In this document: positions 1 through 19,203 of the stretch, piece after piece
How the letters are laid out: each line of letters begins with the position of its first letter
How positions within the stretch are numbered: position 1 is the first letter of the stretch
Source of the DNA: a virus
Taxonomy: Duplodnaviria; Caudoviricetes
Virus record (IMG/VR): IMGVR_UViG_3300032223_002281
Span: 1 to 55,037 of that record
Reading direction: 5' to 3' (one strand)
DNA: 55,037 nucleotides
Notes under the pieces: model-generated
Database searches by the model: none
Told to the model about the DNA's origin: nothing
Seen by the model: the letters and a program-made list of their open reading frames with translations, nothing else
Position numbers and translations under genes: made by a program

Positions 1-323
1 AAAACCTGATCCCAGTCTTTTGTTAATTGATAAGGTTTAGAAATAAATAAAAAATGAGTATAGTCTTTTAACTTTTGATTTTCTACACATTGTTTTCTAT
101 AAAACCATGGACTTATTAATTCATCCCACCAAACTGGATTATAAAAAACATTTTTATATTTAATAAACTTTTCGTATCTAGTTAAATTATTTTGATCATC
201 TATATATATATCAACGTCAACACTATTTGCTTGTGAAATTAAATTATCCACAACATCAATTAATTCAGTTTGTTTATAACCGTATATATGAACAAAGATT
301 TTATTTATGCTAATGGAATCCAA
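1..323 (-). CDS. Partial ORF (runs off window), GT60/Gnt1-like GlcNAc glycosyltransferase N-terminus
   Basis: Hand-translated open frame missing from the ORF track: ...KIFVHIYGYKQTELIDVVDNLISQA...IDDQ...WFYRKQC...YTHFLFISKPYQLTKDWDQV. Resembles the IFVSIASYRD...YxLQIDSHxxFxxxWD pattern, but the DSH motif is not conserved. Confidence 0.45.
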   Translation of the reverse strand, partial: MDSISINKIFVHIYGYKQTELIDVVDNLISQANSVDVDIYIDDQNNLTRYEKFIKYKNVFYNPVWWDELISPWFYRKQCVENQKLKDYTHFLFISKPYQLTKDWDQV

Positions 324-955
324 TGCTGCTCCTTAGAATTAGCAATTTCGCTTAGAGGAACAACGTCATAGGCAATTGTTATTCTAAAATCATCTTTTTC
401 CCAACTTTGAATGCCATGTGGATGACCTGTTTCTGACAAAATTGCACGATTATTAACGTTTACATTTGCAAATCTTTCACCATTAATTCCACCTATTTTA
501 TAATAAGTATTTGATGGTTCTGCATTTACACAATAATATCCATGAAAATCTGGAGCGCCTTTTCCATTCATATGGTCGTGCAAAAATTCATCTGGCAAAG
601 GTTCTGGTTTTTTAAACTTATCAAAGTTAAACCATCCTTGAATCATATAATTTTTTTCTTTAAAATCAATACCATAATAATCGCATGCTTCTTTAATCAT
701 TTCTGAAACTGCTGAATATAAATTATGTATTTCTTTATTATGAAATTGAAAAACATTATATTGCATGCCAAGTTTAGTTGCTACTGCATCAAATTTTAAT
801 CTTGCAAAATCTTCCCGAGTAATTCCAGGAACCATTCCATCTGACATCTCTTTCATCTTGATAGATAAAAAATTTGTTAAAGAAACTAAATCATTGTCAA
901 GTTTTCTTTCAAAAAATTTGTGTTTTGGTTTTTCTATCATAGTAACGGTATCCAA
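305..955 (-). CDS. Putative 2OG-Fe(II) oxygenase (cupin/DSBH), paralog of next gene
   Basis: HDH...FHGYY...GHPH...RITIAYD; likely ATG start at 940. Confidence 0.65.
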   Translation of the reverse strand: MDTVTMIEKPKHKFFERKLDNDLVSLTNFLSIKMKEMSDGMVPGITREDFARLKFDAVATKLGMQYNVFQFHNKEIHNLYSAVSEMIKEACDYYGIDFKEKNYMIQGWFNFDKFKKPEPLPDEFLHDHMNGKGAPDFHGYYCVNAEPSNTYYKIGGINGERFANVNVNNRAILSETGHPHGIQSWEKDDFRITIAYDVVPLSEIANSKEQHWIPLA

Positions 956-1599
956 TGCTGTTCGGATGTATTTGCATTAATTAATGACTGCAAAGGAACA
1001 ATGTCATATGCAACAGTAATTCTTGGTCCATCCCAATCCCAATCTGCTTGTGCATGTGGGTGACCCATTTCTGAAATAATCATTCTATTATCAATGTTGT
1101 TATTTGCTACTTCTCTTTGTGGATCATTAAATATTCTATAATAGGTAACTGATGGCTCTGCTTTTACAGAATAATATCCATGAAAATGTGGAGCAAAAGG
1201 TCCACCATGATCATGCCAATTTAATTTTCCAGTTTTATTATAATTAACATTAAACCAACCTTGTACCATGTAATTTTGTTTGTCAAAATCAACATCGTAA
1301 TATTCGCATGCTTCTCTAGTTACTTCTGAGATTGCTTTGTATAAAGTATAAAGGTCTTTGTTTAAAAATTGAAAAACATTATATTCTCTCCACTTTACAG
1401 TTGAAATACTACCAGATTCAGTCCAAAACTCTTTATCTCCTAAAGTTTTAATACCTGGCAAAGTTGCATTTTTAATTTTATCTGACTGCATTAAAAGATA
1501 ATTTACAAGTTTGGTTGTATCAATATCTAAATGTTTGTCAAAGAACTTATGTTCTTTTGTGCTCATGGCTTCTCCTTTTAACATATTATTATTATACAC
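937..1599 (-). CDS. Putative 2OG-Fe(II) oxygenase
   Basis: WHDH...FHGYY...GHPH...RITVAYD; tandem paralog sharing the EQHWIPL C-terminus. Confidence 0.65.
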   Translation of the reverse strand: MYNNNMLKGEAMSTKEHKFFDKHLDIDTTKLVNYLLMQSDKIKNATLPGIKTLGDKEFWTESGSISTVKWREYNVFQFLNKDLYTLYKAISEVTREACEYYDVDFDKQNYMVQGWFNVNYNKTGKLNWHDHGGPFAPHFHGYYSVKAEPSVTYYRIFNDPQREVANNNIDNRMIISEMGHPHAQADWDWDGPRITVAYDIVPLQSLINANTSEQHWIPLL

Positions 1600-2336
1600 T
1601 ATAGGTATTCTTTTCTTCTCCAGGCATATTTTTTATAGTAACCAAATAGTCTGCTTCTTCTATTTTCTAGTTCATAGTCTTTTTTATCAATTTCTTTTTC
1701 ATCTGCAGAAACTTCCATTTTCCAGTCTTCCCTTTTAAACGGAATTAATTGAAAAATTGGTGTTCCTCTTGGTATAGTTCCAATAAAATTCTTTTTTAAA
1801 AAGAAAGTAACAAAAACTGGAATACCCATTAAATCCGATTCAATAATTCCAGATGGCACTATAAAAGGTAGGTCAAACCTATTCATTGGGTGTGTTAATA
1901 AAATAGAATAGCCTGGTGGAGTTTCATAATACCAGTGCATTCTAAAACCAAAGTGTATTGGGTGATATCCTGCAGGAATTGGTATATCAGCAATATATCT
2001 TTTATCAAGCATTAAAAAATCTTCATTGTCCCAAGAAATGTAAGGCTTTCCATCTGGATCTAAAGTAACGTTAAGATCTTCTGTAAGTCGATACATGTAG
2101 CCAGCAGTCATGGCATCTCTAAATGGGTAGCACATTTTTGTTGAAACATTTGCACCGTCTGTACCCCTATCATTAACAGGATTTAAAAACTCTACTTTAT
2201 TTGTATTATAATGTTGTGCTAAATCTTTATACCATTCTGGAATATGTTTTATTGCAGGCTCAGGAGGCAAAACATTTAAATTATTATACATGTTTATGTC
2301 ACTTGGTAAAAATTTAATTTTATTGCTCAATGCCAT
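1599..2336 (-). CDS. DUF6065-like / dUTPase-fold hypothetical protein
   Basis: PEWYK...KMCYPFRDAMTAGY...GTPIFQLIPFKR pattern. Confidence 0.55.
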   Translation of the reverse strand: MALSNKIKFLPSDINMYNNLNVLPPEPAIKHIPEWYKDLAQHYNTNKVEFLNPVNDRGTDGANVSTKMCYPFRDAMTAGYMYRLTEDLNVTLDPDGKPYISWDNEDFLMLDKRYIADIPIPAGYHPIHFGFRMHWYYETPPGYSILLTHPMNRFDLPFIVPSGIIESDLMGIPVFVTFFLKKNFIGTIPRGTPIFQLIPFKREDWKMEVSADEKEIDKKDYELENRRSRLFGYYKKYAWRRKEYL

Positions 2337-3046
2337 TCCTTTTTATGCCAAAAATTTTTTTTATAATAATTAAAAAATTTACTTCTAATTAACATCCTTT
2401 GCTTTTTTTGGTTATCTTTTGAATCTTTGTATTCAATATATTGACTTGTCCAAGCATCTCTTTTAAAAGGAATTACTTGAGCAATTGGAGTTCCTTTTTC
2501 TATAATACCCTTAAAAGTGTTTTCAACTTTAAAAGATAAAAACCCCTCACTCATATACGAGTCAGTATCAATAATCCCTGGAACAATTTCAAATGGTTGA
2601 TGATCTTGATGCATTGGTTTTATAAAAAGAGCGCTATATCCATCTGATGTTTTAATTGACCACATAGGATTAATTCTTAAAACATCTTTATGCATATTTG
2701 GTGGCATTGGGTAATGTGTGACTTGCTCTGGAGAATGTGTAGTAAAAAGTTCTTTCTTTAATCCAGCAATAGCAATTGGAATATTATAATCAAGTTTAGA
2801 AGGATCAGTTGCATCTACATAAATATCTACTGGGCAATATAAAGTATATCCAGCAGTAAGTGCATCAAAAACAGGCATACATTTTTTAATAGTAGAACCA
2901 GAAACACCTTTTTTTAAAAATTCTTCTTTATTAACATATGCTGGTTGTTTTCTATACCATTCTGGTACATTTCTATGTGTAGGTGTTGGTTTATCTATTA
3001 AACCTTCTGCATCATCACTCCATGGATGAAATTCAATATTTGGCAT
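2327..3046 (-). CDS. DUF6065-like hypothetical protein (paralog)
   Basis: PEWYR...KKCMPVFDALTAGY...GTPIAQVIPFKR. Confidence 0.55.
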   Translation of the reverse strand: MPNIEFHPWSDDAEGLIDKPTPTHRNVPEWYRKQPAYVNKEEFLKKGVSGSTIKKCMPVFDALTAGYTLYCPVDIYVDATDPSKLDYNIPIAIAGLKKELFTTHSPEQVTHYPMPPNMHKDVLRINPMWSIKTSDGYSALFIKPMHQDHQPFEIVPGIIDTDSYMSEGFLSFKVENTFKGIIEKGTPIAQVIPFKRDAWTSQYIEYKDSKDNQKKQRMLIRSKFFNYYKKNFWHKKEWH

Positions 3047-3714
3047 TATGCCCTTCTTTCTTTGCTATTATAAAAATTATAAATTTGATTATAATCATTT
3101 TTATTAATTTTTATTTTAATATCATACATTGCTGTACCTATACTAATTTTACCATGCTCTGAATTTAGCATATGCTCACCATTTTTTTTAAATAAAAAAT
3201 TAACAAAGTTTGGTTCTATAATTATAACATCTGTGTTATTTTTTTTAAAAATACCTTCTTCAATAAGAAAAGGGGTTTTTTCATCTTGTACTTGCAAAAT
3301 TTCAAAATCAATGTCAAGATCTACAAACCATGGACAATAAAACTTATAAGTAGTTAAAAAACAATTTTTATTTTTCATTTGTTTATTAGATGGATAAAAC
3401 TGTCTTATCCATGGTCTATCTAAAAAATAAAAACCTTCATTATAATTTTTTTTAATCCAAATTTCTGCATGAGTTCTTTGCCTTAAATATAAATAACCAT
3501 CTTCATATTTAATTAAGTCTGGTTTTGGATATAAATGATAAACGTAATCATTAATTGGTTTAATTAATGAGTTAGCAATATAATTATTAGATAAAATATA
3601 TTGATATTCAACATATAGTCGTCTACAATTACTTTTGTTTACAATTTCAGAAAACTTTAAGTTTGCCGAATTTGCCCAAAATTCAGATGCCTTAGGATTT
3701 CTATCCCCACGCAT
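3046..3714 (-). CDS. Hypothetical protein, possibly a distant member of the same family
   Basis: 222-aa ORF coupled to both neighbours; YKFYCPWFV and GTAMYDI echo the paralog motifs weakly. Confidence 0.5.
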   Translation of the reverse strand: MRGDRNPKASEFWANSANLKFSEIVNKSNCRRLYVEYQYILSNNYIANSLIKPINDYVYHLYPKPDLIKYEDGYLYLRQRTHAEIWIKKNYNEGFYFLDRPWIRQFYPSNKQMKNKNCFLTTYKFYCPWFVDLDIDFEILQVQDEKTPFLIEEGIFKKNNTDVIIIEPNFVNFLFKKNGEHMLNSEHGKISIGTAMYDIKIKINKNDYNQIYNFYNSKERRA

Positions 3715-3719
3715 ATGAA

Positions 3720-5084
3720 CTACTTATTGTGAGTAACTACGTCGCCTGCAATAATTAAGTCAACTGGCTCAGCGCTGAATGTATAAACTGTTTTTGAACC
3801 AGTTAATACGTCCATGCTGTTAACAACAACTTCATCTGTTTCTCCAGTTGTTGGATTATACTTAAATATTGAATCTCCAACTTCAATTTCAGCAACCATT
3901 GAGAATACATAATTTGATACTCCCTCTACAGTCTTTTTTACCAAAATTGGATGCTCTAAAGTAAATTGTGCAGAATGATCATTATTGAAGCAAACTGTTT
4001 GGCTTCTTACACTTTCTTCAATATCAATAATTGTTGTTTCAGCATCTGCTGTAAAAGTTAGTGAATCTGACTTCCACATAAATACTTCATAATCTGGCTC
4101 ATCTTGATTAATTTCAGAATAGGTAATAGAGTAAATAGTATCTCCAATTGATATATCTTTTGCTTGCTTAGCAATAATATTTCCATTAGAATCTTTTAAA
4201 GTTACCTTGCCAGTTTCAGGGTCGGTTGATTGTGTTCCAACTCCTGGACCAGTTCTAATAAATGTTTCACCATCGATACATCTAATTCCATAGTTTCTTG
4301 GAGAGAATCCAAATGGAGAAAATCCAAATGGTGAGAATCCAAATACACCGAATGGAGAAAATCCAAATGGTGAGAATCCAAATACACCGAATGGTGAGAA
4401 TCCGAACACACCAAATGGTGAGAATCCAAAAACTGAAAATGGCGCAAATGAAAATGATGATGTAATTGATCCAGATGTACCAGTTCCACCATCTCCATTA
4501 GCATTTGTTGCATAAACTGTATAAGTTTGTGCAGTTCCTGATTCTTGTGCAACTGTAATAGAAGTAGACCCTGTATTTCCAGACTTTCCATCAGAAGATG
4601 TCCAGTGGTAGTTTGTAATTCCAGATCCACCATTTGCTGGTGCTGACCATGAAACTGTATCTGTTGCAGTATTTGCAGTTCCTTGAGGTACTGTTGCATC
4701 TCCAGATGCTACTGTAGATACTGAAGGAGTTCCAACTGTATCTGGCACTGTAGTTGCAGTAATTGCTGCTGTTGCACCAGATGAATCAGAAGTTCCATAA
4801 CTATTAGTTGCAGTTACAGTAAAGGTATAAGATGTATTTGACCGCAATCCTGTTACAGAAATTGGAGAAGAGGAACCTGTTCCAGTATATCCATCAGGAG
4901 AAGAAGTGACAGTAAAAGATGTTGCTGCATTTCTTGGATCAGCAGTAAAAGTAACATCTGCCCGTCCATTGTTAAATGGTCGACCTGATCCTACATCAGT
5001 TGCTGTTCCAATCGTTGGTGCATATGGTGCTAAGAAGTCATTCGCACCCTGTGCGTGACCACCAATTTTCTTATTTACTGCCAT
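3720..5084 (-). CDS. Virion-associated protein: FN3-like domains, FGFSP repeats, C-terminal Hint domain
   Basis: GLRSNTSYTFTVTATN (FN3). Hint begins CIDGET (Cys codon at 4280), block B TLEHP, ends VVTHN-K-stop. Confidence 0.8.
   Translation of the reverse strand: MAVNKKIGGHAQGANDFLAPYAPTIGTATDVGSGRPFNNGRADVTFTADPRNAATSFTVTSSPDGYTGTGSSSPISVTGLRSNTSYTFTVTATNSYGTSDSSGATAAITATTVPDTVGTPSVSTVASGDATVPQGTANTATDTVSWSAPANGGSGITNYHWTSSDGKSGNTGSTSITVAQESGTAQTYTVYATNANGDGGTGTSGSITSSFSFAPFSVFGFSPFGVFGFSPFGVFGFSPFGFSPFGVFGFSPFGFSPFGFSPRNYGIRCIDGETFIRTGPGVGTQSTDPETGKVTLKDSNGNIIAKQAKDISIGDTIYSITYSEINQDEPDYEVFMWKSDSLTFTADAETTIIDIEESVRSQTVCFNNDHSAQFTLEHPILVKKTVEGVSNYVFSMVAEIEVGDSIFKYNPTTGETDEVVVNSMDVLTGSKTVYTFSAEPVDLIIAGDVVTHNK
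4299..4454 (-). repeat. Coding tandem repeat (FGFSP / FGVFGFSP)n
   Basis: FSFAPFSVFGFSPFGVFGFSPFGVFGFSPFGFSPFGVFGFSPFGFSPFGFSP. Confidence 0.95.
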
Positions 5085-5115
5085 TTTTTATCTCCTTATT
5101 CCTATTAGAATTTTA

Positions 5116-6741
5116 TTATGCTGACAAATCTCCGTAAAGAACCCAAGTATCGGTTGCTCTCTTAAATAGAGTTGCGCCTGACCACTGTGTTCTTAACTTT
5201 AGTCCTGGTGTTGCGTTAATTGTAACTCCAGCATTTGCTGCTACAGTAATTTGTCCTGTTCCAGTTTGAAGAATATCGATAGATGTTCCTACTGGATAAG
5301 CAACTGTTGAATTTGTAGGAACTGTAAGTGTAACTGCTGAACCAGATGCAATTTCAATTACAGAATCTCTTTCAGAAAGTGCTGAAAGTGTGTAAGATGC
5401 TGTTTTTTGTACGATTGGTGTACGTGAAGGAACGCCTTCTTTAGTTTGTGTTCCATCAGTAAAAATTATTCCTGAAGAATCTACAGTTACTCCACCAGTA
5501 AATGATGGTGATGCTTTAGGTGCTTTAGATGCAACAGTAGTTGTTAATGCTGATGCTGCAGATTCATCTGAGGCCAATTGTGTAGCAATTTCTCCCAAAG
5601 TATCTAATGCTCCTGGTGCAGCATTGACAAGATTTGTAATTGCTGTTTGAACATATGCTGTTGTAGCAATTTGTGTTGTATTAGTTCCTGAAGATGCTGT
5701 TGGTGCTGCTGGTGTACCAGTAAAGGTTGGAGAAGCAACTGGTGCTTTTGCAGTCAATGCTGAATCCAAACCTGAAACTTTTGATGTTGAGATGGCTGCT
5801 GAAGAAGAAATATCTGCATCGACAATTGTTCCATCTGCAATTTTTGCTGATGTAATTGCAGAGTCTGCAATTTTAGCAGTTGTAACTGCTGTATCTGCAA
5901 TTTTTGCTGTAGTTACATTTGCATCAAGAATTTTAACAGTTGTTACTGCATCAGAAGCAATCTTTGTTGCTGTTACAGAAGCATCTGAAGGTGTACGTGC
6001 ATTTGAAAGACGTGAATCAGATGTGTAAACAAGGTTAGCAGTATCTGAGATACCATGTACGCTTGTTGTTGCTGTATTGTGCGCTGTTAATGCTGAAGAA
6101 GCAGCAGATGTAGCACCTGTTTGTGCATCAGAAGCCTTATTATCTGCATAAGACTTAGTTGCAAGTGCTGAAGTATCTGCAATTCCATGAACGTTAGTAG
6201 TTGTTGATTTATGTGAGTTTAGGTTTGTAACCCCATCCGCAATATTTACACCATAAGTACTTAATGTACCAGTATGTGTTGAAACTGTAGACTGCAAAGA
6301 ATTATATTCAGATGTAAGTGTGCTTACATCACTTCCTAAACCATTTAAAGTTGTATCAATTTGTGCAATATTTCCAACAAGTGTACCAGCAAGGCTTGAA
6401 CCATTACCAATAATTGTTGCAATTTCATTAAGTGTGTCAAGTGCTGCTGGAGCACCTGCAATAATATTACCAAGTTGTGCAGATGGAATATTTCCAGTGT
6501 TATCAAGTGTTGCTACACCATTATGAGCACCTTTTTGTGTAAGAAGGATATAGTCATCTAAAGAAGATCCAAGATCTTCAAGGTTTTTAAAGTAAGAGAG
6601 ATCGCTCCAATTTGAAACCCCATCGCCAAGTTTGAATTGATTGGTATCTGTTTCTACTCCAATTTCACCAGCAGCAAGTACTGGATCTGCGCTTGTCCAT
6701 TGTGTAGAAGTTCCTCTACGCTGTTGCATTCTTGTTGTCAT
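5116..6741 (-). CDS. Tail fibre protein (Mtd_N/hyaluronidase-type N-terminus, C-terminal adaptor domain)
   Basis: QQRRGTSTQW...GEIGVETDT...KLGDG; VTTAKIAD repeats; SPTFTGTP; ends TWVLYGDLSA. Confidence 0.8.
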   Translation of the reverse strand: MTTRMQQRRGTSTQWTSADPVLAAGEIGVETDTNQFKLGDGVSNWSDLSYFKNLEDLGSSLDDYILLTQKGAHNGVATLDNTGNIPSAQLGNIIAGAPAALDTLNEIATIIGNGSSLAGTLVGNIAQIDTTLNGLGSDVSTLTSEYNSLQSTVSTHTGTLSTYGVNIADGVTNLNSHKSTTTNVHGIADTSALATKSYADNKASDAQTGATSAASSALTAHNTATTSVHGISDTANLVYTSDSRLSNARTPSDASVTATKIASDAVTTVKILDANVTTAKIADTAVTTAKIADSAITSAKIADGTIVDADISSSAAISTSKVSGLDSALTAKAPVASPTFTGTPAAPTASSGTNTTQIATTAYVQTAITNLVNAAPGALDTLGEIATQLASDESAASALTTTVASKAPKASPSFTGGVTVDSSGIIFTDGTQTKEGVPSRTPIVQKTASYTLSALSERDSVIEIASGSAVTLTVPTNSTVAYPVGTSIDILQTGTGQITVAANAGVTINATPGLKLRTQWSGATLFKRATDTWVLYGDLSA

Positions 6742-6798
6742 TTTATCTCTCCTTTGTACGGGCTGCGTACGACTTTCTAATTATTAAATTTTCTTTCA

Positions 6799-8319
6799 TT
6801 ATGCTACCCCGCCACCATCGAGTATTAGATTAAATGAACCAATATGATCAAATGCATACTGAACAAAGGCAGTAGTTGCAATTTGAGTTGTATTTGTTCC
6901 ACCTGTTGCTGTTGGAGCATGTGGTGTTCCAGTTAACGTTGGTGATCCAAGGTTTGCTTTAAGATCAAGTGCTGTTTGAGTTGCTGTTGATACTGGCTTA
7001 GCAGAATCTGCAGTGTTATCAACTGATCCGAGTCCTACCATAGACTTTGTAATTCCTGAAACAGTTCCAGTGAATGTAGGTGAAGCAAGTGGTGCCTTAA
7101 GTGCTACATTTGAAATTGTTTCATATGTTGATGCTGCTGTAGTAGAAGCAAGTTTTGCATCTAATGCTGTTTGAGTAGCAGTAGAAATTGGCTTATTGGC
7201 ATCTGAGGTATTGTCAACATTTCCAAGACCAACCATAGACTTTGTAATACCTGCTACAGTTCCTGTAAAGGTAGGAGAAGCAATTGGAGCCTTAGCATCT
7301 AATGCTGTTTGAGTTGCTGTGGAGACTGGTTTGTTTGAATCAGAAGTATTATCAACATTGCCAAGTCCTACCATAGATTTTGTAATACCTTGAACTGTTC
7401 CAGTAAAGGTTGGATTTGCAGAAGGTGCCTTAGTTCCTACCAAAGTAGCAAGTGATGCTGCTGTTGATTCATCTGCTGTAAGTGCATCTGCAAGTTCCTT
7501 AAGTGTATTAAGGGCTTCTGGTGCTGAGTTTACAACTGCTGCAACTGCAGTAGATGCTGCATTATCAGCATATGTTTTTGTTGCAAGAGCAGAAGTATCT
7601 GCAATACCGTGAATATTTGTTGTATCTGCTTCATGTGAAGCAAGAGCATTTGCTGCTGTAGTTTCTGCACCTGACTTAGCATTATTAGCCTTTGTAGTTG
7701 CATCTGATGCAGCAGCAGTCTGTGCATCAGAAGCCTTGCCATCTGCATATGTTTTTGTTGCAATTGTTGAGTCAACTGCTACTGTAATTGTATTCGCTGA
7801 ATCATTATAGGTCTTTGTAATACCTGATCCCGCAGTAAGTGCTGAGTTAACAGCATCTTGTGAAAGTTCTGTAATATCTGCTGAATTAGCCTTAAGATCA
7901 AGAGCAGCCTGGGTTGCTGTTGAAACAGGCTTATTAGCATCAGATGTATTATCTGCATTTCCGAGGCCAACCATGGCCTTTGTAACGCCTGCTACTGTTC
8001 CAGTAAATGTTGGGTTATTGATTGGAGCCTTAGTTGCAAGGTCAGAAGTCATTGTTCCGATAAAGTCTGGGTTATCGCCAATAGAGGCTGCTAACTCATT
8101 AAGTGTATTAAGTAGGTCTGGTGCACCATCAATAAGGTCTTGAATGGCTGCTGCAGCATCTGCGGTAAAGTAGACAAGATCTGCCCAACGGTTAGTTCCA
8201 TCACCAATCTTAAATTTGTTTGTATCAATTTCAAAACCAATTTCTGCTGCTGCAAGAATAGGGTTTGCTGATGTCCATTGAGAGGCTGTACCTCTACGTT
8301 GCTGTTGTCTAACTGCCAT
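6799..8319 (-). CDS. Tail fibre protein with internal repeats
   Basis: Same Mtd_N-like N-terminus; 4 copies of PTFTGTVxGITKSMVGLGNVDNTSDxNKPVSTATQTALD. Confidence 0.8.
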   Translation of the reverse strand: MAVRQQQRRGTASQWTSANPILAAAEIGFEIDTNKFKIGDGTNRWADLVYFTADAAAAIQDLIDGAPDLLNTLNELAASIGDNPDFIGTMTSDLATKAPINNPTFTGTVAGVTKAMVGLGNADNTSDANKPVSTATQAALDLKANSADITELSQDAVNSALTAGSGITKTYNDSANTITVAVDSTIATKTYADGKASDAQTAAASDATTKANNAKSGAETTAANALASHEADTTNIHGIADTSALATKTYADNAASTAVAAVVNSAPEALNTLKELADALTADESTAASLATLVGTKAPSANPTFTGTVQGITKSMVGLGNVDNTSDSNKPVSTATQTALDAKAPIASPTFTGTVAGITKSMVGLGNVDNTSDANKPISTATQTALDAKLASTTAASTYETISNVALKAPLASPTFTGTVSGITKSMVGLGSVDNTADSAKPVSTATQTALDLKANLGSPTLTGTPHAPTATGGTNTTQIATTAFVQYAFDHIGSFNLILDGGGVA

Positions 8320-8372
8320 TTACTTCCTCCTTATGGGTGCTGCCCACATGTATCTTATTATAACATCAATTT

Positions 8373-8831
8373 TTAATTGAAATTATCTATTGCTATTCCA
8401 CCATCTATAGTAGATGTAAAAGTTGTATCTGATGCATTTCCAGAATCAGTGCTAGATGTCATTGGACTATCTGGAAAACCAGACTCAATATACATGCTAA
8501 CAATTAAACCAGTTCCATCAATTGCTGTATCGTGAATGTGCTGCGGAATATTATGTGTATCATCAAGCGTTGCCTGTGTATACCATGATCCCTCATAATA
8601 GAAATTAACTCTATTTGTTATAGTATCTAACCATTGTGTTCCATTAGTTGGTGAAGAGGGAGCAGCATCTCCGACAGCCATTGAGCGTGAATCGACATAC
8701 TCCTTTGTTGCTGCGTGTACATTAAGAGTAGGTGTTCCTACTTCAACTGCCCCGCCAAATGAACCGCCGTTTGTTACGATCAGGCCATTCTTAACTCTGA
8801 AGTCTTTATCGACTGTCACTGATAATGTCAT
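8373..8831 (-). CDS. Small tail-fibre-associated protein
   Basis: KDFRVKNGLIV shared with next gene; HAATKEYVD; APSSPTNGTQWLD. Confidence 0.6.
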   Translation of the reverse strand: MTLSVTVDKDFRVKNGLIVTNGGSFGGAVEVGTPTLNVHAATKEYVDSRSMAVGDAAPSSPTNGTQWLDTITNRVNFYYEGSWYTQATLDDTHNIPQHIHDTAIDGTGLIVSMYIESGFPDSPMTSSTDSGNASDTTFTSTIDGGIAIDNFN

Positions 8832-8866
8832 TTACTTCTCCCTCTTCCAACTATTTTTATTTTTTA

Positions 8867-10735
8867 TTAAGCAAGTAATGTTCCAACTAATGTAACTGTT
8901 GAGTTATTGTTAACTGTTGTTACCTGAAGTTGTACATCATTTCCTGCAATACCTGCTGAAACTGATGATGCTGAACCATTTGTTCCAACAATTCCATATT
9001 CAGTAATTGCAATATTGTCAGAAGTATCAAGTGTAACAAGTACCTTTGAAATTTCTGTATGTGATCCATATGCTACCTTTACAAGGAATTCTGCTGAACG
9101 ATAATCAGCCTTAGCCCATGCATATCCTGTTGCAATTCCTGCAACTGGTACTGAAGTTGTTGCTGCAACCTGCTTTGCAACTGAGTTTAACTCAACTGCT
9201 GTAAAGTTTGGAACCACTGCCTCAAGAGCATCTACTGCTCTCTGTGCTGTAAAGTAAAGGTTTGAACCTTCTGTCAAGTCAGATGTTGTGGAATCTGCTA
9301 CACCGTTTTCTGCGGTAATAGTAAGTCCTGCACCTGAACCTGTAATTGTAATATTTGTAAGATTTGCAGAAGTTAAAAGATCTGCTGCTGATGACTTAGC
9401 ACGAGAATCTGTAAAGTATTCATTTGAACCTTCTTCAATATCTGATGTAGTAAGTGCATTAATTGCGCTGTCTGTATAATTTTCAGCATTTTGTTGTGCT
9501 GTTGCAGCAGAACCATTTGCATCGTAATTACCAGCAAGGCTATCTGCGTAGTTTTCAGCATTTTGTTGTGCTGTAGAAGCAGAACCATTTGCATCATAAT
9601 TGCCTGCAAGGCTATCTGCATAGTTTTCAGCATTTTGCTGTGCTGTTGATGCATATCCTTGAGCATTTGTATCTGATGATGACGCTAAACCATCTGCATA
9701 AAGTTCTGCATTACCTTGTGCTGTTGTGGCATAACCTTGCGCTGCTGTATCAACACCTGAAATTTCTGAATCAACATAAGTTGTATCAGCCTTTGCTGCA
9801 ACTAAATTTGCAACATCTGATGCATAATTTGGATTATCAGCAATTGCTGCAGCCAATTCATTAAGTGTATTTAAAAGATCTGGCGCAGAATCTACAAGAT
9901 TTGCTACTGCTGTATCAGTATAGCCTTCTGCTGCAGTGATTGCTTCTGACTTAGCAGTTGCAATAGCATTATTTCTATTTGTAACTTCTGTTGAAATTGC
10001 AGAAGAAATTGCTGAGTTACGATTTGTAACTTCAGAAGAAATTGCAGAATCTGTATATCCTTCAGATGTTGAAATTGCTTGACTCTTAGCAGTTGAAATT
10101 GCTGAGTTGCGATTTGTTACCTCTGTTGAAATTGCTGAATCTGTATAACCTTCAGCAGTAGAAATTGCCTGAGATTTAGCAGTATTTATTGCATTATTAC
10201 GGTTTGTAACTTCTGTAGAAATTGCCGAATCAGTGTAATTTTCAGCATTACCTTGTGCTGTAGTTGCATATCCTTGTGATGCTGTGTCTAGAGAAGAAAT
10301 TTCTCCATTTACATATCCACGAGTTGCAATTTCATTATTTGATGATTTTGCACCATAGTATGCTGATCCATCTGGATTAAGAACGATATCGCCTGAGTCT
10401 GAGTTAAGAGCAATATCATCTGATGCAGAAAGAACGATTCCATTATTAGAACCAACTTCTGTATCTCCATTAACAACATCAATACCGTTGTTTGTTGAAC
10501 CACCAACATAGAGTGTATTTACTGTAACATTGTTAGCAGCAAAATCTCCTGAACCATCACGCTTTACAACTGTGTTTGGTGTATTAGCAGAAGTTGCTGT
10601 TCCACCAATAAGACCAACAATATAGTCTTGATCATCTTGCTTTTTTGTAAGAATGTCGTAACCGTTAATTGTACCTGTTGTACCTTCAACGATAAGCCCA
10701 CTCTTAATTTTAAAATCTTTATTTACTGTTGCCAT
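8867..10735 (-). CDS. Long tail fibre/structural protein with coiled-coil repeats
   Basis: SAISTEVTNRN and AQQNAENYADSLAGNYDANGSA repeats; EGSNLYFT; C-terminal ITEYG domain. Confidence 0.75.
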   Translation of the reverse strand: MATVNKDFKIKSGLIVEGTTGTINGYDILTKKQDDQDYIVGLIGGTATSANTPNTVVKRDGSGDFAANNVTVNTLYVGGSTNNGIDVVNGDTEVGSNNGIVLSASDDIALNSDSGDIVLNPDGSAYYGAKSSNNEIATRGYVNGEISSLDTASQGYATTAQGNAENYTDSAISTEVTNRNNAINTAKSQAISTAEGYTDSAISTEVTNRNSAISTAKSQAISTSEGYTDSAISSEVTNRNSAISSAISTEVTNRNNAIATAKSEAITAAEGYTDTAVANLVDSAPDLLNTLNELAAAIADNPNYASDVANLVAAKADTTYVDSEISGVDTAAQGYATTAQGNAELYADGLASSSDTNAQGYASTAQQNAENYADSLAGNYDANGSASTAQQNAENYADSLAGNYDANGSAATAQQNAENYTDSAINALTTSDIEEGSNEYFTDSRAKSSAADLLTSANLTNITITGSGAGLTITAENGVADSTTSDLTEGSNLYFTAQRAVDALEAVVPNFTAVELNSVAKQVAATTSVPVAGIATGYAWAKADYRSAEFLVKVAYGSHTEISKVLVTLDTSDNIAITEYGIVGTNGSASSVSAGIAGNDVQLQVTTVNNNSTVTLVGTLLA

Positions 10736-12379: not shown

Positions 12380-12492
12380 AATAAATAATTATACCATGTT
12401 AAAACTTGACTTTTGGGTTAAAAGTGGGTAAAATTATGTTATACTTATACTAGACACCTACCAAGGTGTTATTGTTTTCTAAGGAGGAAACT

Positions 12493-13050
12493 ATGATGAA
12501 CGAGAAATTAAAAGAACAAGTAATCATTGGAATACTTACGGTGACTGGCATCTTCGCCGTTTTTTCAAATAATGCTAATGCAGTAACAGTTAATAATACT
12601 AATAGTGAACAGTCTCAGCCCGTGATAGCCCCTTCAGGGGCTTTTTTGGTTTCTAAGACTGCAAATCTTAGTAAGTTAACAAAATATGTAAGCCAAGATT
12701 CTTTAACAGACAAACAACTAAAAGATCTTCTTTATAACGTTGGTTTTCGTGGACAACATTTAAAAGAGGCTTGGGCTGTTGCCAAAAAAGAAACTAATGG
12801 CAGACCATATGCTTTTAATAAAAATGGAAAAACAGGAGATAAGTCATATGGCTTATTTCAAATTAATATGTTAAGAGATCTTGGTCCAGATAGAATTAAA
12901 AAGTTTGGACTTAGCGATAATCAAGATCTTTTCAACCCAGTTATTAATGCACAAGTTGCATTTTGGATGTCCAAAGGTGGACTAGATTGGTCTTCTTGGC
13001 ATGGACTTACTGCCGAGACAAAAATGTGGATTAAAAAGTTTCCGATTTAA
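12493..13050 (+). CDS. Secreted lytic transglycosylase / lysozyme-like protein
   Basis: SD AAGGAGG; signal peptide ending NANA; AVAKKETNG...SYGLFQIN...N...WSSW. Confidence 0.8.
   Translation: MMNEKLKEQVIIGILTVTGIFAVFSNNANAVTVNNTNSEQSQPVIAPSGAFLVSKTANLSKLTKYVSQDSLTDKQLKDLLYNVGFRGQHLKEAWAVAKKETNGRPYAFNKNGKTGDKSYGLFQINMLRDLGPDRIKKFGLSDNQDLFNPVINAQVAFWMSKGGLDWSSWHGLTAETKMWIKKFPI
12627..12647 (+). terminator. Terminator-like hairpin inside the transglycosylase CDS
   Basis: AGCCCC-TTCA-GGGGCT-TTTTT. Confidence 0.5.
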
Positions 13051-13972
13051 ATCCTTTTTCTAACATTTTGCTGTAATAAAATTCAGCATAGTGTAATTGG
13101 CGATGAAGCCCTGGGTGTGGAGTTCTAGTAATTTTCTTTCCTGGGGCTTCTCCAATTTTATGATAATCATAACCATAGTCAAAAATATTTGTGTATTGAT
13201 CAAACTCTTTTTGGTGGCAGCCTATAGCATCCCACCCCTTCATCTTATAAAAAGGCAGCAGCCCATCAACTGTTTTAGAATCTATGTAGAACTCAAAATT
13301 AGGTGGGAACTCTTTGCGTACCCGATCCTGAATATAACTATCAAAATTATTAATAAGAAACTTTTCTTGCTCTTCTGATAGTGAGTTAGTCCATGTTGAC
13401 CAGATCAAACTAATATTATTGACTCTACAGAAAGCCTCAAGCATTTGTATGTAGTTTAAGTTATTTTGATATACCCATTCATATGGTATTGTTGCTGAAT
13501 AGTCCCAAGGAGCAGAGTCTTTTGTCTTCCTTGGTTTGTTACCCAAACAATAATCAGTCATCTTGGATCCATCACCAGAAATAAAATAAAACCTTTCAAG
13601 TGGGGCAAAGTTGCAGATAACATAATCAGGTAAATAGTTATATTTATTAATCATGCCAAAGAAACTAGAAATAATCTGATTTACAGACCCTCCGCTATAT
13701 GAGATATTTCCAACTGATAGTCCTGTAAGATCTGAAAGTATGTTTGACCACCTTAGATCTACTGGAAGACCCTGTCCTAGAGTTATAGAGCATCCTAGGG
13801 CTACTATTGGGGGTTTGCTTTCAAACTCTATGGATCTAATACCGTCTGAGTTCCAGCAATAGTTATACTCTTTTCTTGCAACCTCTGCATGAGTTACAAG
13901 TATGTCAGAGACTGGACCTTCGCCTGGTCTTGGATGAGAAATAATTCCAGATTTAAATATATTAAACAGCAT
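13031..13972 (-). CDS. SGNH/GDSL-hydrolase-like protein
   Basis: ALGCSITLGQG...NISYSGGS...PHPG; paralog of 46366-47334. Confidence 0.55.
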   Translation of the reverse strand: MLFNIFKSGIISHPRPGEGPVSDILVTHAEVARKEYNYCWNSDGIRSIEFESKPPIVALGCSITLGQGLPVDLRWSNILSDLTGLSVGNISYSGGSVNQIISSFFGMINKYNYLPDYVICNFAPLERFYFISGDGSKMTDYCLGNKPRKTKDSAPWDYSATIPYEWVYQNNLNYIQMLEAFCRVNNISLIWSTWTNSLSEEQEKFLINNFDSYIQDRVRKEFPPNFEFYIDSKTVDGLLPFYKMKGWDAIGCHQKEFDQYTNIFDYGYDYHKIGEAPGKKITRTPHPGLHRQLHYAEFYYSKMLEKGFKSETF

Positions 13973-14340: not shown

Positions 14341-14916
14341 CTAACTAATATCTTTTTCATTTTGTTTTCTAATATTTGTGTATAAATATTCTGGCCCCTC
14401 TGTAAAATACCAATGTTCTGGTTCGCAATAAAAAAAGAAAGCGTTGCAGACTATATTAGTATCGGGATCTGGAAAATCTTCTCTCCAATGCTCTTGATCG
14501 TTTCCATAGGATATCACTGCCTCATTCTCTAAAGGAGTAAACTTCTTTCCTTTTACATAAAAATCCCAGGGAGTTTTTGCAAATACTGTTAGATTTATAT
14601 GATAAGTACAGGCATTATCATCTTTATGCTTCCAAAGTCTTGCTTCTTTACCCTCATAAATGCTAATTAGGCACCAAGATGGCTTTAGTGTTTCTGAGTC
14701 AAACTCTATTTTTGCAGTTGATAAAAGTTTATTATGAAAATATTTTAATGGAAGTAAATGTTCTGGAACTGACTTACCCCATAAAGCCCATTGATGTCTT
14801 CCAAAACCTTTATCAAAAGTACTTTTATCTCTTTGATAAATGTTTATTGCATATTCTTTTAAAACTTTAAAATCTGATTCACTAAAAACATTTTTTATTA
14901 AATATGGATCTTTCAT
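14341..14916 (-). CDS. 2OG-Fe(II) oxygenase
   Basis: LWKHKD...QEHWR facial triad. Confidence 0.75.
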   Translation of the reverse strand: MKDPYLIKNVFSESDFKVLKEYAINIYQRDKSTFDKGFGRHQWALWGKSVPEHLLPLKYFHNKLLSTAKIEFDSETLKPSWCLISIYEGKEARLWKHKDDNACTYHINLTVFAKTPWDFYVKGKKFTPLENEAVISYGNDQEHWREDFPDPDTNIVCNAFFFYCEPEHWYFTEGPEYLYTNIRKQNEKDIS

Positions 14917-14924
14917 GATCTCTC

Positions 14925-16361
14925 CTACTTATTGTGAGTTATGATATCGCCTGCTATAATAATATCGCCTGGTTCTGCACTAAATATATAAACTGGATCA
15001 GCATTAGATAATATATCAATAGAATTGATTTTTGTATTATTATAAAGTCCAGTAGATTGATCATATTTAACAATAATATCTCCTACCTCTAATTCTGCTA
15101 CCATTGCAAATTTCCAAGAATCTACATTATTTTCTAATTTATTAACAAGAATTGGATGCTCTAAAGTAAACTGCACTGATTGATCATCATTAAAATAAAC
15201 AGTTTGTGTTTTATTTAATTCTTGAACATCAACAATTGTAGTGGTTGAATTTTCAATAAATGTTAACGAGTCTGATGACCAAGTAAACACCTCATAATCT
15301 GGAGAATCAATATTTATTTCTGCATAAGAAACAGTCATAATCTCATCTCCAATCTCAATATCCTTTGCTTGTTTTGCAACAATATTTCCATCTGAATCTA
15401 CAAGTGTAATCTTTCCAGTTATTGGATCTATAGACTCTGTACCCAGTGCTGAAGAAAGTCTTATAAAAGTGTTTCCAGAAATACACCTTACTCCATATGT
15501 AGTTGTGGAGAATGAATATGGTGTTGGTGTAGGTGTTGGCGTTGGTGTAGGCGTTGGAGTTGGAGTTGGTGTAGGAGTTGGAGTAGGCGTTGGAGTTGGA
15601 GTTGGTGTAGGAGTTGGTGTAGGCGTTGGAGTTGGAGTTGGTGTTGACACTGGATCACCACAACATTGCCACCCTTGTGGAACTGAATACTGTAAATAAT
15701 TTCCTAAATAGTTAAATCCTAATTCAAGACAAGTTTTTGATGTTGGGTTAGTTGCCTGTCCAGGACATGATGGTGGTGTAGGAGTTGGTGTAGGAGTTGG
15801 TGTAGGAGTTGGTGTAGGAGTTGGAGTTGGTGTAGGAGTTGGTGTGGGAGTTGGAGTGGGAACTGTTGGACAGGTCCAAGATTCTGTTCCTGCTCCAGGA
15901 CATCCTGCAGGAATTACATAAATATCAACACTTATAACAGATCCATTACATACTCTTGCTTCACGATAACTATAAACTGGTGTACAGTTTGGAGTTGGCG
16001 TTGGTGTCGGTGTTGGAGTTGGCGTTGGTGTCGGTGTTGGAGTTGGCGTTGGTGTCGGTGTTGGAGTTGGCGTTGGTGTCGGGGTTGGTGTTGGGGTTGG
16101 TGTTGGTGTCGGGGTTGGTGTTGGAACATATGTATAGTATGTAAATGAAATATTTGTTTCATAATCTACTAGCGTTCCACTAGAAATAGATTGAAAAGAA
16201 ATATGATTATCTAAATTAATATTGTATGTGCCAGTTGATCCAGAATTTAAAAAATTTAAACCAAGAGAAGTTAATAATGCTTGGGCTTCAGTTACAGTTT
16301 TTGTAGATAAGTCTGGTACTGAAACCATTCCTTTAGATGCCCATTGAAATAAATTTAGCAT
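14925..16361 (-). CDS. PASTA-like N-terminus, three (Pro-Thr)n tracts, Cys-rich spacers, C-terminal Hint domain
   Basis: [16 protein letters not shown]; Hint begins CISGNT (Cys codon at 15485), TLEHP, ends IITHN-K-stop. Confidence 0.8.
15519..16125 (-). repeat. Three coding (Pro-Thr)n tracts
   Basis: Hexamer repeats at about 15519-15645, 15775-15861 and 15990-16125, with synonymous variation. Confidence 0.95.
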
Positions 16362-16368
16362 CTTATAC

Positions 16369-16998
16369 CTAAGCCGTCAAATCGCCAACAAGCAACCAAG
16401 TATTTGTATCAACTTTTACAAGTACACAACCTGCATATTGAGAAGATATTTTTTTGTTTGAATTCTTGCTATTAATTGTAACGCCAACTGCGCCAGCAAT
16501 AGAAACATTTCCAGTTCCACTTCTTACAATTTCAATTTTTTGTCCATTAGAAAAAGAAGTAGTACTATTTGCTGGAATAGTAATAATTACATCAGATGAT
16601 GAACTTACATTAATTGTTTTACCAGCATGGTCTTTATTTAATTGAAAACTAGATGTTTGAAGTGATAAAGTTGTTGAATCATTGATCCAACGCCATTCTC
16701 CATTGTAATAATATTGAATTTGATTTATAACAAATCCATCATTGTCTTGTCTAATAAAACAAACAATTCCATTTGTTGGAGAAACAATTGCAGCATCTCT
16801 AGCAGTTGGATTTTGAAAATTATTTACTCCAGCCTTTGCATTAATAACCATATCAAAATTAACTACTGAAGAAAAATGTTGATCTGCAGTCCAAGTGTAT
16901 TGTGCATTTGTATTAACTGCCCCACCAATTGCATACCAAGTATCATTTTGTTGATTATAAATATATGCTACTTTTCCATCTGAATTAATTGTTGACAT
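16369..16998 (-). CDS. Tail-associated protein with C-terminal adaptor domain
   Basis: C-terminal ~90 aa paralogous to the end of 5116-6741 ([10 protein letters not shown]). Confidence 0.7.
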
Positions 16999-18480: not shown

Positions 18481-19203
18481 TCAAACCACAGAAACATAAA
18501 TACTTTTTAGTTTTCCAATTGCATCAAAATCTGTTCTTATTTGTGGAACTCCACCTGCAGCCCACATATTTTGATCCTCTATAAAAAATTGTTGATCTAC
18601 AGAAATATCATACGTGTATTGATATTTAAACGATCCAATTAACTTTGACGGAGAAAATTTTGTTGATGAAAATAATGTTCTAAACCATACCTCAGTATTA
18701 TTAGTGTATGTTGTTAATTCAAAATTATAGGTTACATTTACAATAGCACCAATCTCCAATGGTTTAAATGTTAAAGATTTTGAATTAAAATTATAAAGGC
18801 TGGTTCCAAAAGCAGATTCTGGCATAAAATTTTCATTTTTAGTTGAACCTTTTTCAATTAATTCTAAAGATACCCAACCATCGTCACCATTTGTTATTCC
18901 AAGTCTTGCTTCTGGCGATTTTAAGTTTGTATAAGATGCCCAACCTGCTTGTTGTCCAGAAGCAGACAAAGAACTTTTTCCATCTTCTCCTTTTGGCCCT
19001 CTGTCACCTTTAGGACCACGAGCACCATCTTTACCAGCATCTCCATCTTTTCCTGGTTCTCCTTTAGGACCTTGCAAACCTTTTGGACCTTCTGGACCAG
19101 GAACTGGAATATATGTTGCCATATCTGTTGAGGGAACTTGCTGCTGTAATACTTGAGAAGCATAAGCATTTTTAGGAAAATCCATATTTTTTGAAACAGC
19201 CAT
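18481..19203 (-). CDS. Collagen-repeat structural protein
   Basis: Gly-X-Y run GPEGPKGLQGPKGEPGKDG... Confidence 0.75.
   Translation of the reverse strand: MAVSKNMDFPKNAYASQVLQQQVPSTDMATYIPVPGPEGPKGLQGPKGEPGKDGDAGKDGARGPKGDRGPKGEDGKSSLSASGQQAGWASYTNLKSPEARLGITNGDDGWVSLELIEKGSTKNENFMPESAFGTSLYNFNSKSLTFKPLEIGAIVNVTYNFELTTYTNNTEVWFRTLFSSTKFSPSKLIGSFKYQYTYDISVDQQFFIEDQNMWAAGGVPQIRTDFDAIGKLKSIYVSVV

Follow-up and report, generated by a model that had tools for sequence, protein, structure and literature searches.

At positions 1-6741 of a 55,037-base stretch of tailed-virus DNA (IMG/VR record IMGVR_UViG_3300032223_002281, estimated to be ~48% complete; hereafter the window), a 454-amino-acid (aa) protein encoded directly behind a tail-fibre gene ends in a Hint domain. 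We propose that this protein is an accessory arm of the tail-fibre apparatus, made as a precursor and working with the upstream-encoded fibre. Its Hint domain is probably a self-removing cap, and the genes that follow (three linked to a dUTPase fold, here u222, 84a and 84b; two putative oxygenases, oxA and oxB; and a glycosyltransferase, GT) probably form an accessory island that is unrelated or only loosely related to the arm.

The Hint domain and its partner fibre

From its N-terminus, the 454-aa protein comprises a short conserved peptide, two FN3-like domains, a Phe-rich repeat, the Hint domain, one Lys and the stop codon. Pfam matched fn3 at E 5.8e-7, the second FN3-like stretch matches the FN3 domains of titin and contactin, and a sequence and profile search of the PDB with the protein returned FN3 and antibody-type matches only. 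The DNA under the Phe-rich tract consists of tandem arrays with periods of 15, 24 and 39 nt, and the number of repeats differs between relatives. In one relative (L026 2329-3640) the gene is split in or near the repeat into two overlapping open reading frames (ORFs), a frameshift or an assembly error. The junction between repeat and Hint domain reads ...NYGIR-C269, with the codon of Cys269 at 4278-4280; the TxxH motif is T375-L-E-H378 and the chain finishes with H452-N453-K454-stop. The initial annotation of this DNA had described an FN3 protein with an FGFSP tract directly before a Hint domain with Cys1, TxxH, HN and Lys-stop, and all of these elements are present.

Using residues 256-454 as query, we found 44 relatives (E 5.7e-125 to 4.5e-64), each at least 55% identical over this part, with fn3 or PASTA as their N-terminal domains. 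An AlphaFold2 model of the Hint domain, built from a 28-sequence alignment, reached a pLDDT of 87.9 and a pTM of 0.84. With this model, Foldseek found 37 PDB matches at E <= 0.001; inteins, bacterial-intein-like (BIL) domains and Hedgehog make up all 42 rows listed. The best match is the BIL domain of C. thermocellum (2lwy; E 3.7e-6, TM-score by target 0.77), the second is the BIL2 domain of Tetrahymena (6y75; E 1.4e-5), and the Hedgehog autoprocessing domain (1at0) gave a TM-score by target of 0.76. Cys1, TxxH and HN-Lys-stop are invariant in 28/28 relatives and in 18/18 locus-derived sequences, which are 52-77% identical to the domain; the invariant positions in domain numbering are C14, T120, H123, H197, N198 and K199. 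Since 44 relatives, a paralogue in the same window and a confidently predicted fold support it, the observation is not due to chance, and sequence comparison and modelling together confirm the Hint domain as genuine.

Its defining features place the domain in the A-type BIL-like class of Hint domains. It has in common with A-type BIL domains the Hint fold (2lwy), Cys1, TxxH and a C-terminal His-Asn with no Cys, Ser or Thr past the Asn. These domains were reportedly described by Amitai in 2003 and by Dassa in 2004, both cited in PMC7765530. The sequence identity to 2lwy is only ~14%, and the phage domain is not recognised by Pfam or NCBIfam models. Unlike BIL domains, it stands at the extreme end of a protein of the fibre module, where one Lys is the whole 'C-extein', always after an aromatic/Pro-rich or PT repeat, and is paired with an adaptor-ended fibre gene. 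A canonical intein was rejected because the domain is terminal and has no host protein, and because the sole residue that follows it is Lys, leaving no C-extein nucleophile. A Hog domain of the Hedgehog type, as in 1at0, has in common with it the Hint fold, the C-terminal position, the proposed thioester release of an N-terminal fragment and the lack of a splicing partner. This class was rejected as well because the stop codon comes one residue past HN, so that the phage protein has no sterol- or adduct-recognition region; unlike in Hog, HN is conserved. A further likeness to A-type BIL domains is that these occur, according to the excerpted text of PMC7765530, in variable proteins of surface type and not in conserved enzymes.

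To define the family, a profile of the Hint domain was searched against 1.84 billion cluster representatives. It matched 231 representatives at E <= 0.001 (109 at E <= 1e-10), and 149 of the 150 matches listed were analysed. The one left out, P0167 (3903 aa), matches only profile positions 131-176, in 19 stretches; it seems to repeat a sub-motif and not to contain a Hint domain. Of the 149, 142 extend to the C-terminus of the profile. Exactly HN-K-stop is the ending in 50 of these, and in a further 64 a K or R lies among the first three residues past HN, giving 114/142; the remainder have HN with another tail (4) or no HN (24). A strict pattern detected the Cys1 motif in 67 of the 89 representatives with an untruncated N-terminus, and in several of the other 22 Cys1 is visible by eye in the printed stretches. 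At least 40% of the 40 residues before Cys1 are F, W, Y or P in 49 of the 67, and in eight full sequences FFAPPGFF, WFPPWFPY, YSFTP or PT/PV repeats stand directly before C-I-x-x-D-T. These counts and the eight sequences show that the repeat, the Hint domain and the Lys or Arg past HN belong together as a single recurring end-module.

The gene upstream encodes a 541-aa fibre protein with a match to Mtd_N (Pfam, E 2.6e-13) and to tail-fibre PHROGs, for example phrog_2631 at 2.2e-23. Its C-terminus, ...TDTWVLYGDLSA, belongs to a conserved 'adaptor' domain in which P475, G485, V506, K527 (codon 5161-5163), W533, G537-D538-L539 and A541 are invariant in 17/17 aligned sequences; several phage tail PHROGs are matched by the domain at their very C-termini. 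To examine the pairing, we used 57 Hint-seeded loci on viral contigs, found with an 11-sequence subset of distant Hint proteins and containing 66 Hint-type ORFs. Among the 53 ORFs with at least 700 nt of upstream sequence, an adaptor-ended gene stops within 120 nt upstream of the Hint-type gene in 50. The fibre with a WxLxGDLxA end that had been noticed ahead of the Hint gene is thus one half of a conserved gene pair. Co-folding of the 454-aa protein with fibre residues 415-541, using their own alignments and no controls, scored 0.00 twice, a result that bears neither way.

The window holds a second module of this kind. Its 478-aa paralogue is 58% identical to the 454-aa protein over 197 residues (E 3e-74), with PASTA at E 1e-4 in Pfam and a Hint domain at 14928-15485 that starts at Cys293 and ends HNK-stop. 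PF14890 (Intein_splicing) matched only this paralogue, below threshold (E 0.059, 13.6 bits vs a cut-off of 35.8). The 209-aa protein encoded ahead of it resembles the 541-aa fibre at the C-terminus, with 42% identity over its last 81 residues (E 1e-17). Because the second module repeats the pairing, the unit of a WxLxGDLxA-ended protein and a repeat-Hint protein occurs twice in the window. The two modules have the Hint domain in common and differ in the N-terminal domain (PASTA vs FN3) and in the repeat (PT vs Phe-rich).

Genes downstream of the arm gene

The three genes directly behind the arm gene had been described as two or three 'DUF6065-like' genes, a label that we replace. DUF6065 (PF19541) matched only 84b, below threshold (E 0.032, 14.2 bits vs a cut-off of 26.6), with no Pfam match of this family to 84a or u222; a feature search of a protein atlas listed clusters in which 12-23% of members carry DUF6065. 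The clear matches are to phrog_7084 (84a, E 4.1e-50; 84b, E 2.7e-35). An AlphaFold2 model of 84a (pLDDT 78.2) aligned in VIA-align with the S. mutans dUTPase 3h6x (Z 11.4, root-mean-square deviation 3.0 over 120 residues), and the top 22 rows (Z 11.4 to 6.6) contain dUTPases, dCTP deaminases and herpesvirus dUTPase-related proteins only. Foldseek against the PDB gave 13 matches at E <= 0.001, every row listed being a dUTPase, and the viral library agrees. Going by its predicted structure, the 84 family therefore has a dUTPase fold. It has this fold in common with trimeric dUTPases and dCTP deaminases, and its proteins exceed these by ~100 residues and have an extended N-terminus as well as a helix at the C-terminus. 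In 23 sequences, a G-I-I-D/E-T-D stretch (D162 and D/E160 each 23/23) and G-T-P-x-x-Q (23/23) are conserved, which we take to resemble dUTPase motifs III and IV. No counterpart of the C-terminal motif V was seen in the alignment, and sequence and HMM searches of the PDB gave no match of the family to solved dUTPases. For u222, no Pfam, PHROG, NCBIfam or PDB sequence match was found. Its sole link to the dUTPase fold is an hhalign match to the 84 family (probability 81.9%, E 1.1e-5, 167 columns), and it has no GIIDTD-type motif.

The labels of oxygenase and GT60-like glycosyltransferase in the initial annotation were not wrong in kind and hold only through remote links. In a tblastn search, oxA matched gene PSSM2_057 of phage P-SSM2 (25.7% identity, 83% coverage, E 6e-7), a gene with a PF13759 domain (E 5.1e-10), and the protein-atlas search likewise points to PF13759 (score 0.96). 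H129-D130-H131, H182 and R193-x-T195 are invariant in a 20-sequence alignment. None of 31 members matched a 2-oxoglutarate (2OG) oxygenase model in Pfam; a family profile found 853 proteins at E <= 0.001, and none of the 120 matches listed carries a Pfam domain. We regard oxA and oxB as putative 2OG-Fe(II) oxygenases of a Pfam-orphan family remotely related to PF13759. Full-length orthologues of the truncated GT gene have 283-291 aa. PF11397 (GT60 GlcNAc transferase) matched 9 of 29 family members at E <= 0.01 (best E 2.2e-6); it did not match the closest orthologue of the window gene, and the 107-aa piece in the window has no Pfam match. The acidic position of the enzyme, D-x or G-D-D in other clades, is FLSKP or FISKP in the clade of the window. 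Searches of the PDB by sequence and profile found nothing real for the oxygenase (ox) and GT families.

In longer relatives the order of genes is fibre genes, repeat protein, a variable island (ox, 84 or full set) and a class II ribonucleotide reductase (RNR; Pfam RNR_Alpha, E 1.6e-31), followed by a ~176-aa gene (in several), a ~1240-aa protein, a ~136-aa gene and a ~530-aa protein that may be read as a putative portal. There is no RNR in the window, and the region left of position 1 is not part of it. In haloarchaeal tailed viruses, an 84 homologue lies between tail-fibre genes and RNR, two genes from the latter. Such a position beside RNR, together with the predicted dUTPase fold and its motif III-/IV-like stretches, is consistent with an island that acts on nucleotides or DNA. 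The dUTPase-fold proteins would then handle (d)NTPs, and the oxygenase and GT would hypermodify a base, for which hydroxymethyl-base glycosylation systems are the model. We consider this unlikely, since the 84 family gives no sequence-level dUTPase match and lacks a visible motif V, since we know of no record of PF13759 as a nucleic-acid oxygenase family, and since the halovirus homologue borders tail-fibre genes too. In addition, 84 genes are found near the Hint gene in three loci where RNR is elsewhere (L120, L148 and L171). The notion that 84a is a mere neighbour of RNR is for this last reason not fully tenable, because 84 genes stay by the Hint gene when RNR is upstream.

Proposed maturation of the arm

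By analogy with known Hint domains, we infer the following course. Cys269 would attack the carbonyl of Arg268 in an N-to-S acyl shift, and the thioester would be resolved, most simply by water, to free an FN3-repeat arm ending in ...NYGIR. Asn453 would cyclise and Lys454 would be freed. As a removable cap, the Hint domain may prevent the sticky aromatic repeat from coming out of solution or reacting before the arm has been assembled. The intact predicted fold, the invariant catalytic residues and the lack of a C-extein nucleophile are consistent with the self-processing part of the initial inference, in which a dedicated pathway was also supposed to modify the repeat; that second part did not hold, as described below. 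A phage precedent for the same logic is the Peptidase_S74 chaperone of tailspikes and fibres, a C-terminal domain that is needed in maturation and then removes itself. Peptidase_S74 is a Ser-Lys dyad protease, unrelated in fold and chemistry to the Hint thioester, and general Pfam and PHROG scans of the window proteins turned up no S74 match.

Relatives reached through the oxygenase gene contain the repeat protein in four states. In the first, the Hint domain is intact and the C-terminus reads ...THNK. In the second, Cys1 is present and the terminal HN is gone, for example in ...THPEYYPEYL. In the third, a Hint-derived domain keeps TxxH without Cys1, has HD or YD in place of HN and bears a ~40-residue tail. 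In the fourth, the Hint domain is absent and the protein stops at ...FNFAPWG just past the repeat. Because relatives without Cys1 and HN, or ending after the repeat, are found, catalysis would be dispensable for the arm itself. Judged from these sequences, the FN3-repeat arm is the constant element among relatives and Hint catalysis is dispensable in some lineages. The series is therefore easier to reconcile with a removable cap than with an indispensable ligase. Among the sister genomes G001-G003 and G005 (L103-L106), arm proteins have (FGA)n runs with a Gly-X-Y-like period of three, and in some of them Cys-rich modules set between PT-type linkers precede a Hint-derived domain that lacks Cys1.

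We also considered that the Hint domain acts as a ligase rather than a disposable cap, with an amine resolving the thioester so that the arm is capped or attached covalently. Candidate amines would be the side chain of the +1/+2 Lys (giving isopeptide- or peptide-linked Lys), adaptor Lys527 or an amine of the host cell wall. The K or R at one of the three positions past HN (114/142 representatives that reach the domain end), the invariance of the +1 Lys in this clade and of the adaptor Lys in 17/17 sequences, and the adaptor gene as upstream neighbour in 50/53 all agree with such a reaction. So does the presence of 6y75, the BIL2 domain of the Tetrahymena BUBL locus, among the closest solved folds. 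That domain conjugates a ubiquitin-like domain via its thioester, and the product is a lysine conjugate. BUBL BIL2 (6y75 and 6tmm) and the phage domain would have in common that a Hint domain activates the C-terminus of the preceding domain, which is ubiquitin-like in BUBL and a Phe-rich repeat in the phage. We give ligation only a small chance. Relatives with a dead or absent Hint domain retain the adaptor domain and its Lys, so that the adaptor Lys is not tied to an active thioester. In addition, A-type BIL domains are said in the excerpted text of PMC7765530 to cleave and to be unable to ligate their flanks. A still more specific form, in which repeat-Hint-HN-Lys is a new splicing device whose Lys side chain replaces the Cys, Ser or Thr nucleophile and whose thioester passes to the +1/+2 Lys, Lys527 or a cell-wall amine, seems to us a similarly slim prospect. 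If it were true, the phage would need no external enzyme to cap its sticky Phe-rich arm or to fasten it by a covalent bond.

Linkage of the enzyme genes and setting of the locus

To determine how closely the enzyme genes follow the arm gene, the best 80 of 418 stretches matching the oxygenase were classified. Seven loci of close relatives keep the order Hint protein, 222-aa gene, 84a, 84b, oxA, oxB, GT and a third ox gene. The full enzyme set lies beside an intact Hint domain in 6 of the 80 and beside a dead Hint-derived domain in 23. In a further 11, it is present with no repeat protein within 2.5 kb upstream despite at least 5 kb of upstream sequence, and 2 more have ox genes only and no repeat protein within this distance. 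Where only ox genes come after the repeat protein, this protein is Hint-less (8 loci) or Cys1-only (2 loci); the remaining 28 have too little upstream sequence to classify.

Five sister genomes were searched whole, and all hold the triad of a fibre gene, an FN3-(FGA or FGFTP)n-dead Hint gene and an 84a-like gene. In four of the five, this triad lies ~50 kb from the enzyme locus reached through the oxygenase, which contains a 222-84b-oxA-GT block in L040, L044 and L052 and oxA alone in L067. In the fifth, G004, the enzymes directly follow the triad, as in the window. The L040 block (sister genome G001) comes after the terminase and other genes and is followed by two further 2OG oxygenases (PF13640), a 477-aa ORF and genes like p313. 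The 477-aa ORF is a carbamoyltransferase candidate by eye, through its likeness to a window gene matching phrog_1601. That window gene (44192-45616, +) is Nol/NodU-like (phrog_1601, E 1.6e-101).

A tally in the opposite direction used the 57 Hint-type genes with at least 3 kb of downstream sequence and counted recognised genes within 4.5 kb. Twenty were followed by ox genes only, 15 by 84 genes only, 14 by an SLT-type lysozyme only, 7 by none of these and 1 by the full set. The enzyme genes are a variable, movable accessory island rather than a dedicated arm pathway, and the enzyme set varies independently of the state of the Hint domain. The initial annotation had proposed a dedicated tailoring pathway, and had named Hint genes unlinked to these enzymes in other genomes as one of the observations that would speak against it. 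This is mostly what we found: the full set follows one of 57 Hint-type genes, it stands beside a dead Hint domain in 23 loci, and the distance is ~50 kb in four of the five sister genomes.

The proposed pathway would have the oxygenases hydroxylate Pro or Phe of the repeat and the GT60-like transferase add a sugar, as a dedicated decoration of a self-processed appendage resembling that of ribosomally synthesised and post-translationally modified peptides. Several observations are in keeping with it, namely the tight packing of the genes on a single strand, the remote link of the ox family to PF13759, the ox genes after 20/57 Hint-type genes and the presence of a repeat protein somewhere in 5/5 sister genomes with an ox gene or block. 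In addition, 9/29 GT members match PF11397, the family of the Skp1 hydroxyproline GlcNAc-transferase, and a chlorovirus prolyl 4-hydroxylase acts on proline-rich viral repeats. We nevertheless hold this pathway to be decidedly improbable. A GT gene follows only one of the 57 Hint-type genes in the Hint-seeded loci, and full sets occur beside dead Hint domains, without a near repeat protein (11 loci) and far off in sister genomes. The L040 block is embedded among further 2OG oxygenases, a putative carbamoyltransferase and p313-like genes, and the acidic GT position is replaced in this clade. Three of the downstream genes belong to a dUTPase-fold group (u222 remotely) and are not known protein-modifying enzymes, and the second module, with its PT repeat, lacks these genes apart from an unassigned 191-aa gene. 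Action of the oxygenases or GT on the repeats in trans is possible. Very doubtful, finally, is a Hint domain that stays uncleaved in vivo as a permanent C-terminal knob of the arm, its catalytic residues kept for folding or another reason: many relatives keep the domain without Cys1 and HN (23/80 ox-seeded loci), so that a structural role for the fold exists, yet Cys1, TxxH and HN-K are invariant in 28/28 sequences whose surroundings are only 55-77% identical, and after catalytic loss these residues drift and the ~40-aa tail appears.

Several points weigh against a self-removing cap followed by an unrelated island. No Hint family matched the 454-aa protein in Pfam (E <= 0.1) or NCBIfam. The strict HN followed by Lys or Arg hints at a C-terminal reaction more specific than cap removal, because simple N-terminal cleavage needs neither; Hedgehog has no HN and uses no Asn cyclisation. 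For 36/57 Hint-type genes, the genes recognised in the next 4.5 kb downstream include an ox or an 84 gene, and L120, L148 and L171 keep 84 genes 1.5-3 kb past the Hint gene though RNR lies upstream of the fibre genes. A functional tie of the ox and 84 genes to the arm, or of the 84 family to the fibre module, is for these reasons possible. Since all these phages have one common backbone, the synteny and its breaks represent few independent events.

The features of both modules are collected in Table 1. All eight genes of positions 1-6741 lie on the minus strand in the ORF list, every element being where the initial annotation placed it, and they are close-packed with overlaps or gaps of 5-31 nt. 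Promoter- and terminator-like sites are no more frequent in this block than in shuffled sequence. NCBIfam gave zero matches for the eight genes, and at the DNA level the region matched deposited phages only in short fibre-repeat stretches. The GC content is 29% in 1-4000 (enzyme genes) and 39% in 4001-10000, with the step at the boundary between the enzyme and Hint-fibre genes. We rejected this step as a sign of a foreign island; it is weak evidence because Ala/Gly/Thr-rich fibre proteins alone raise GC.

Table 1. Coordinates of the genes and domains of the two Hint modules in the window
Feature	Position	Strand	Basis
Fibre, 541 aa: Mtd_N-type N-terminus, fibre repeats, conserved C-terminal domain	5116-6741	-	ORF, Pfam, PHROGs
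Fibre 'adaptor' domain, residues 415-541, ends WxLxGDLxA	5119-5499	-	alignment
Proposed arm precursor (Hint protein), 454 aa	3720-5084	-	ORF, fn3, 44 relatives
Phe-rich repeat tract, residues 211-262 (52 residues), units FGFSP and FGV	4299-4454	-	
Hint (bacterial-intein-like) domain, residues 269-454	3723-4280	-	fold, invariant residues
u222, 222 aa, distant member of the phrog_7084 / dUTPase-fold family	3046-3714	-	profile-profile match
84a, 239 aa, phrog_7084, predicted dUTPase-like fold	2327-3046	-	PHROG, predicted structure
84b, 245 aa, 84a paralogue (30% identical)	1599-2336	-	PHROG, alignment
oxA, 220 aa, putative 2OG-Fe(II) oxygenase	937-1599	-	remote link to PF13759
oxB, 216 aa, oxA paralogue (45% identical)	305-955	-	alignment; phrog_2696 E 7.8e-8
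GT-A-like glycosyltransferase, N-terminal 107 codons, cut by window end	3-323	-	ORF, relatives
Second adaptor, 209 aa, same C-terminal domain as 541-aa fibre	16369-16998	-	
Second Hint precursor, 478 aa: PASTA, three (PT)n runs, Cys-rich modules, Hint	14925-16361	-	

Other genes of the window were noted beside the second module. The 191-aa gene directly after its Hint gene (14341-14916, -) matches phrog_2954 'ferrochelatase' (E 6.6e-10) and no Pfam family, as does a 406-aa gene at 20463-21683 (+; phrog_2954, E 2.4e-14). The 191-aa protein has an H-K-D and a further H later in the chain, a possible oxygenase triad; it has no significant similarity to the PF13640 oxygenase of a sister phage, and sequence and profile searches of the PDB found nothing for it. 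The 313-aa gene at 13031-13972 (-) has no Pfam or PHROG family, is kept beside this module and is duplicated in relatives, with paralogues also in the L040 enzyme cluster. An SLT_3/lysozyme-like gene with a hydrophobic N-terminus (12466-13050, +; E 1.6e-15) lies on the opposite strand inside the tail module and in relatives constantly neighbours the PASTA/PT-type Hint module on its downstream side. Further on, a 240-aa protein (18481-19203, -) contains a collagen-like G-X-Y run (GPEGPKGLQGPKGEPGKDGDAGKDG...) and matches collagen-like tail-fibre PHROGs; it is another conceivable substrate for a hydroxylase or glycosyltransferase.

The host group was approached through the large terminase of sister genome G001 (L040 994-2775), which is 55% identical over its full length to that of ~131-kb Streptomyces phages; a terminase search gave 339 matching records, Gordonia phages among them. 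This likeness to Streptomyces and Gordonia phages, together with the PASTA domain, suggests that the hosts of this phage group are Actinobacteria.

Hint chemistry is already known from inteins, Hedgehog and bacterial BIL domains, and its placement in a fibre module is new as far as we found. In the literature searched we found no report of a Hint domain at the end of a phage fibre-module protein and no mention of DUF6065, and the inteins in the terminase and RNR of phiCbK are ordinary inteins in the portions of the source consulted. The Hint protein is absent from 50,697 deposited phage genomes, with one record matching in the FN3 part only. For phages of this group, genes packed closely behind a fibre gene are the mark of an exchangeable accessory island and not of a pathway, and the 'DUF6065-like' phage family phrog_7084 can now be assigned a dUTPase fold on the strength of its predicted structure. 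Together, the recurring end-module (231 representatives), its constant partner gene and the series from active through dead to lost Hint domains provide a compact system in which to study the maturation or fastening of aggregation-prone phage appendages, and the near-universal Lys or Arg after HN is a clue to a possibly new splicing chemistry.

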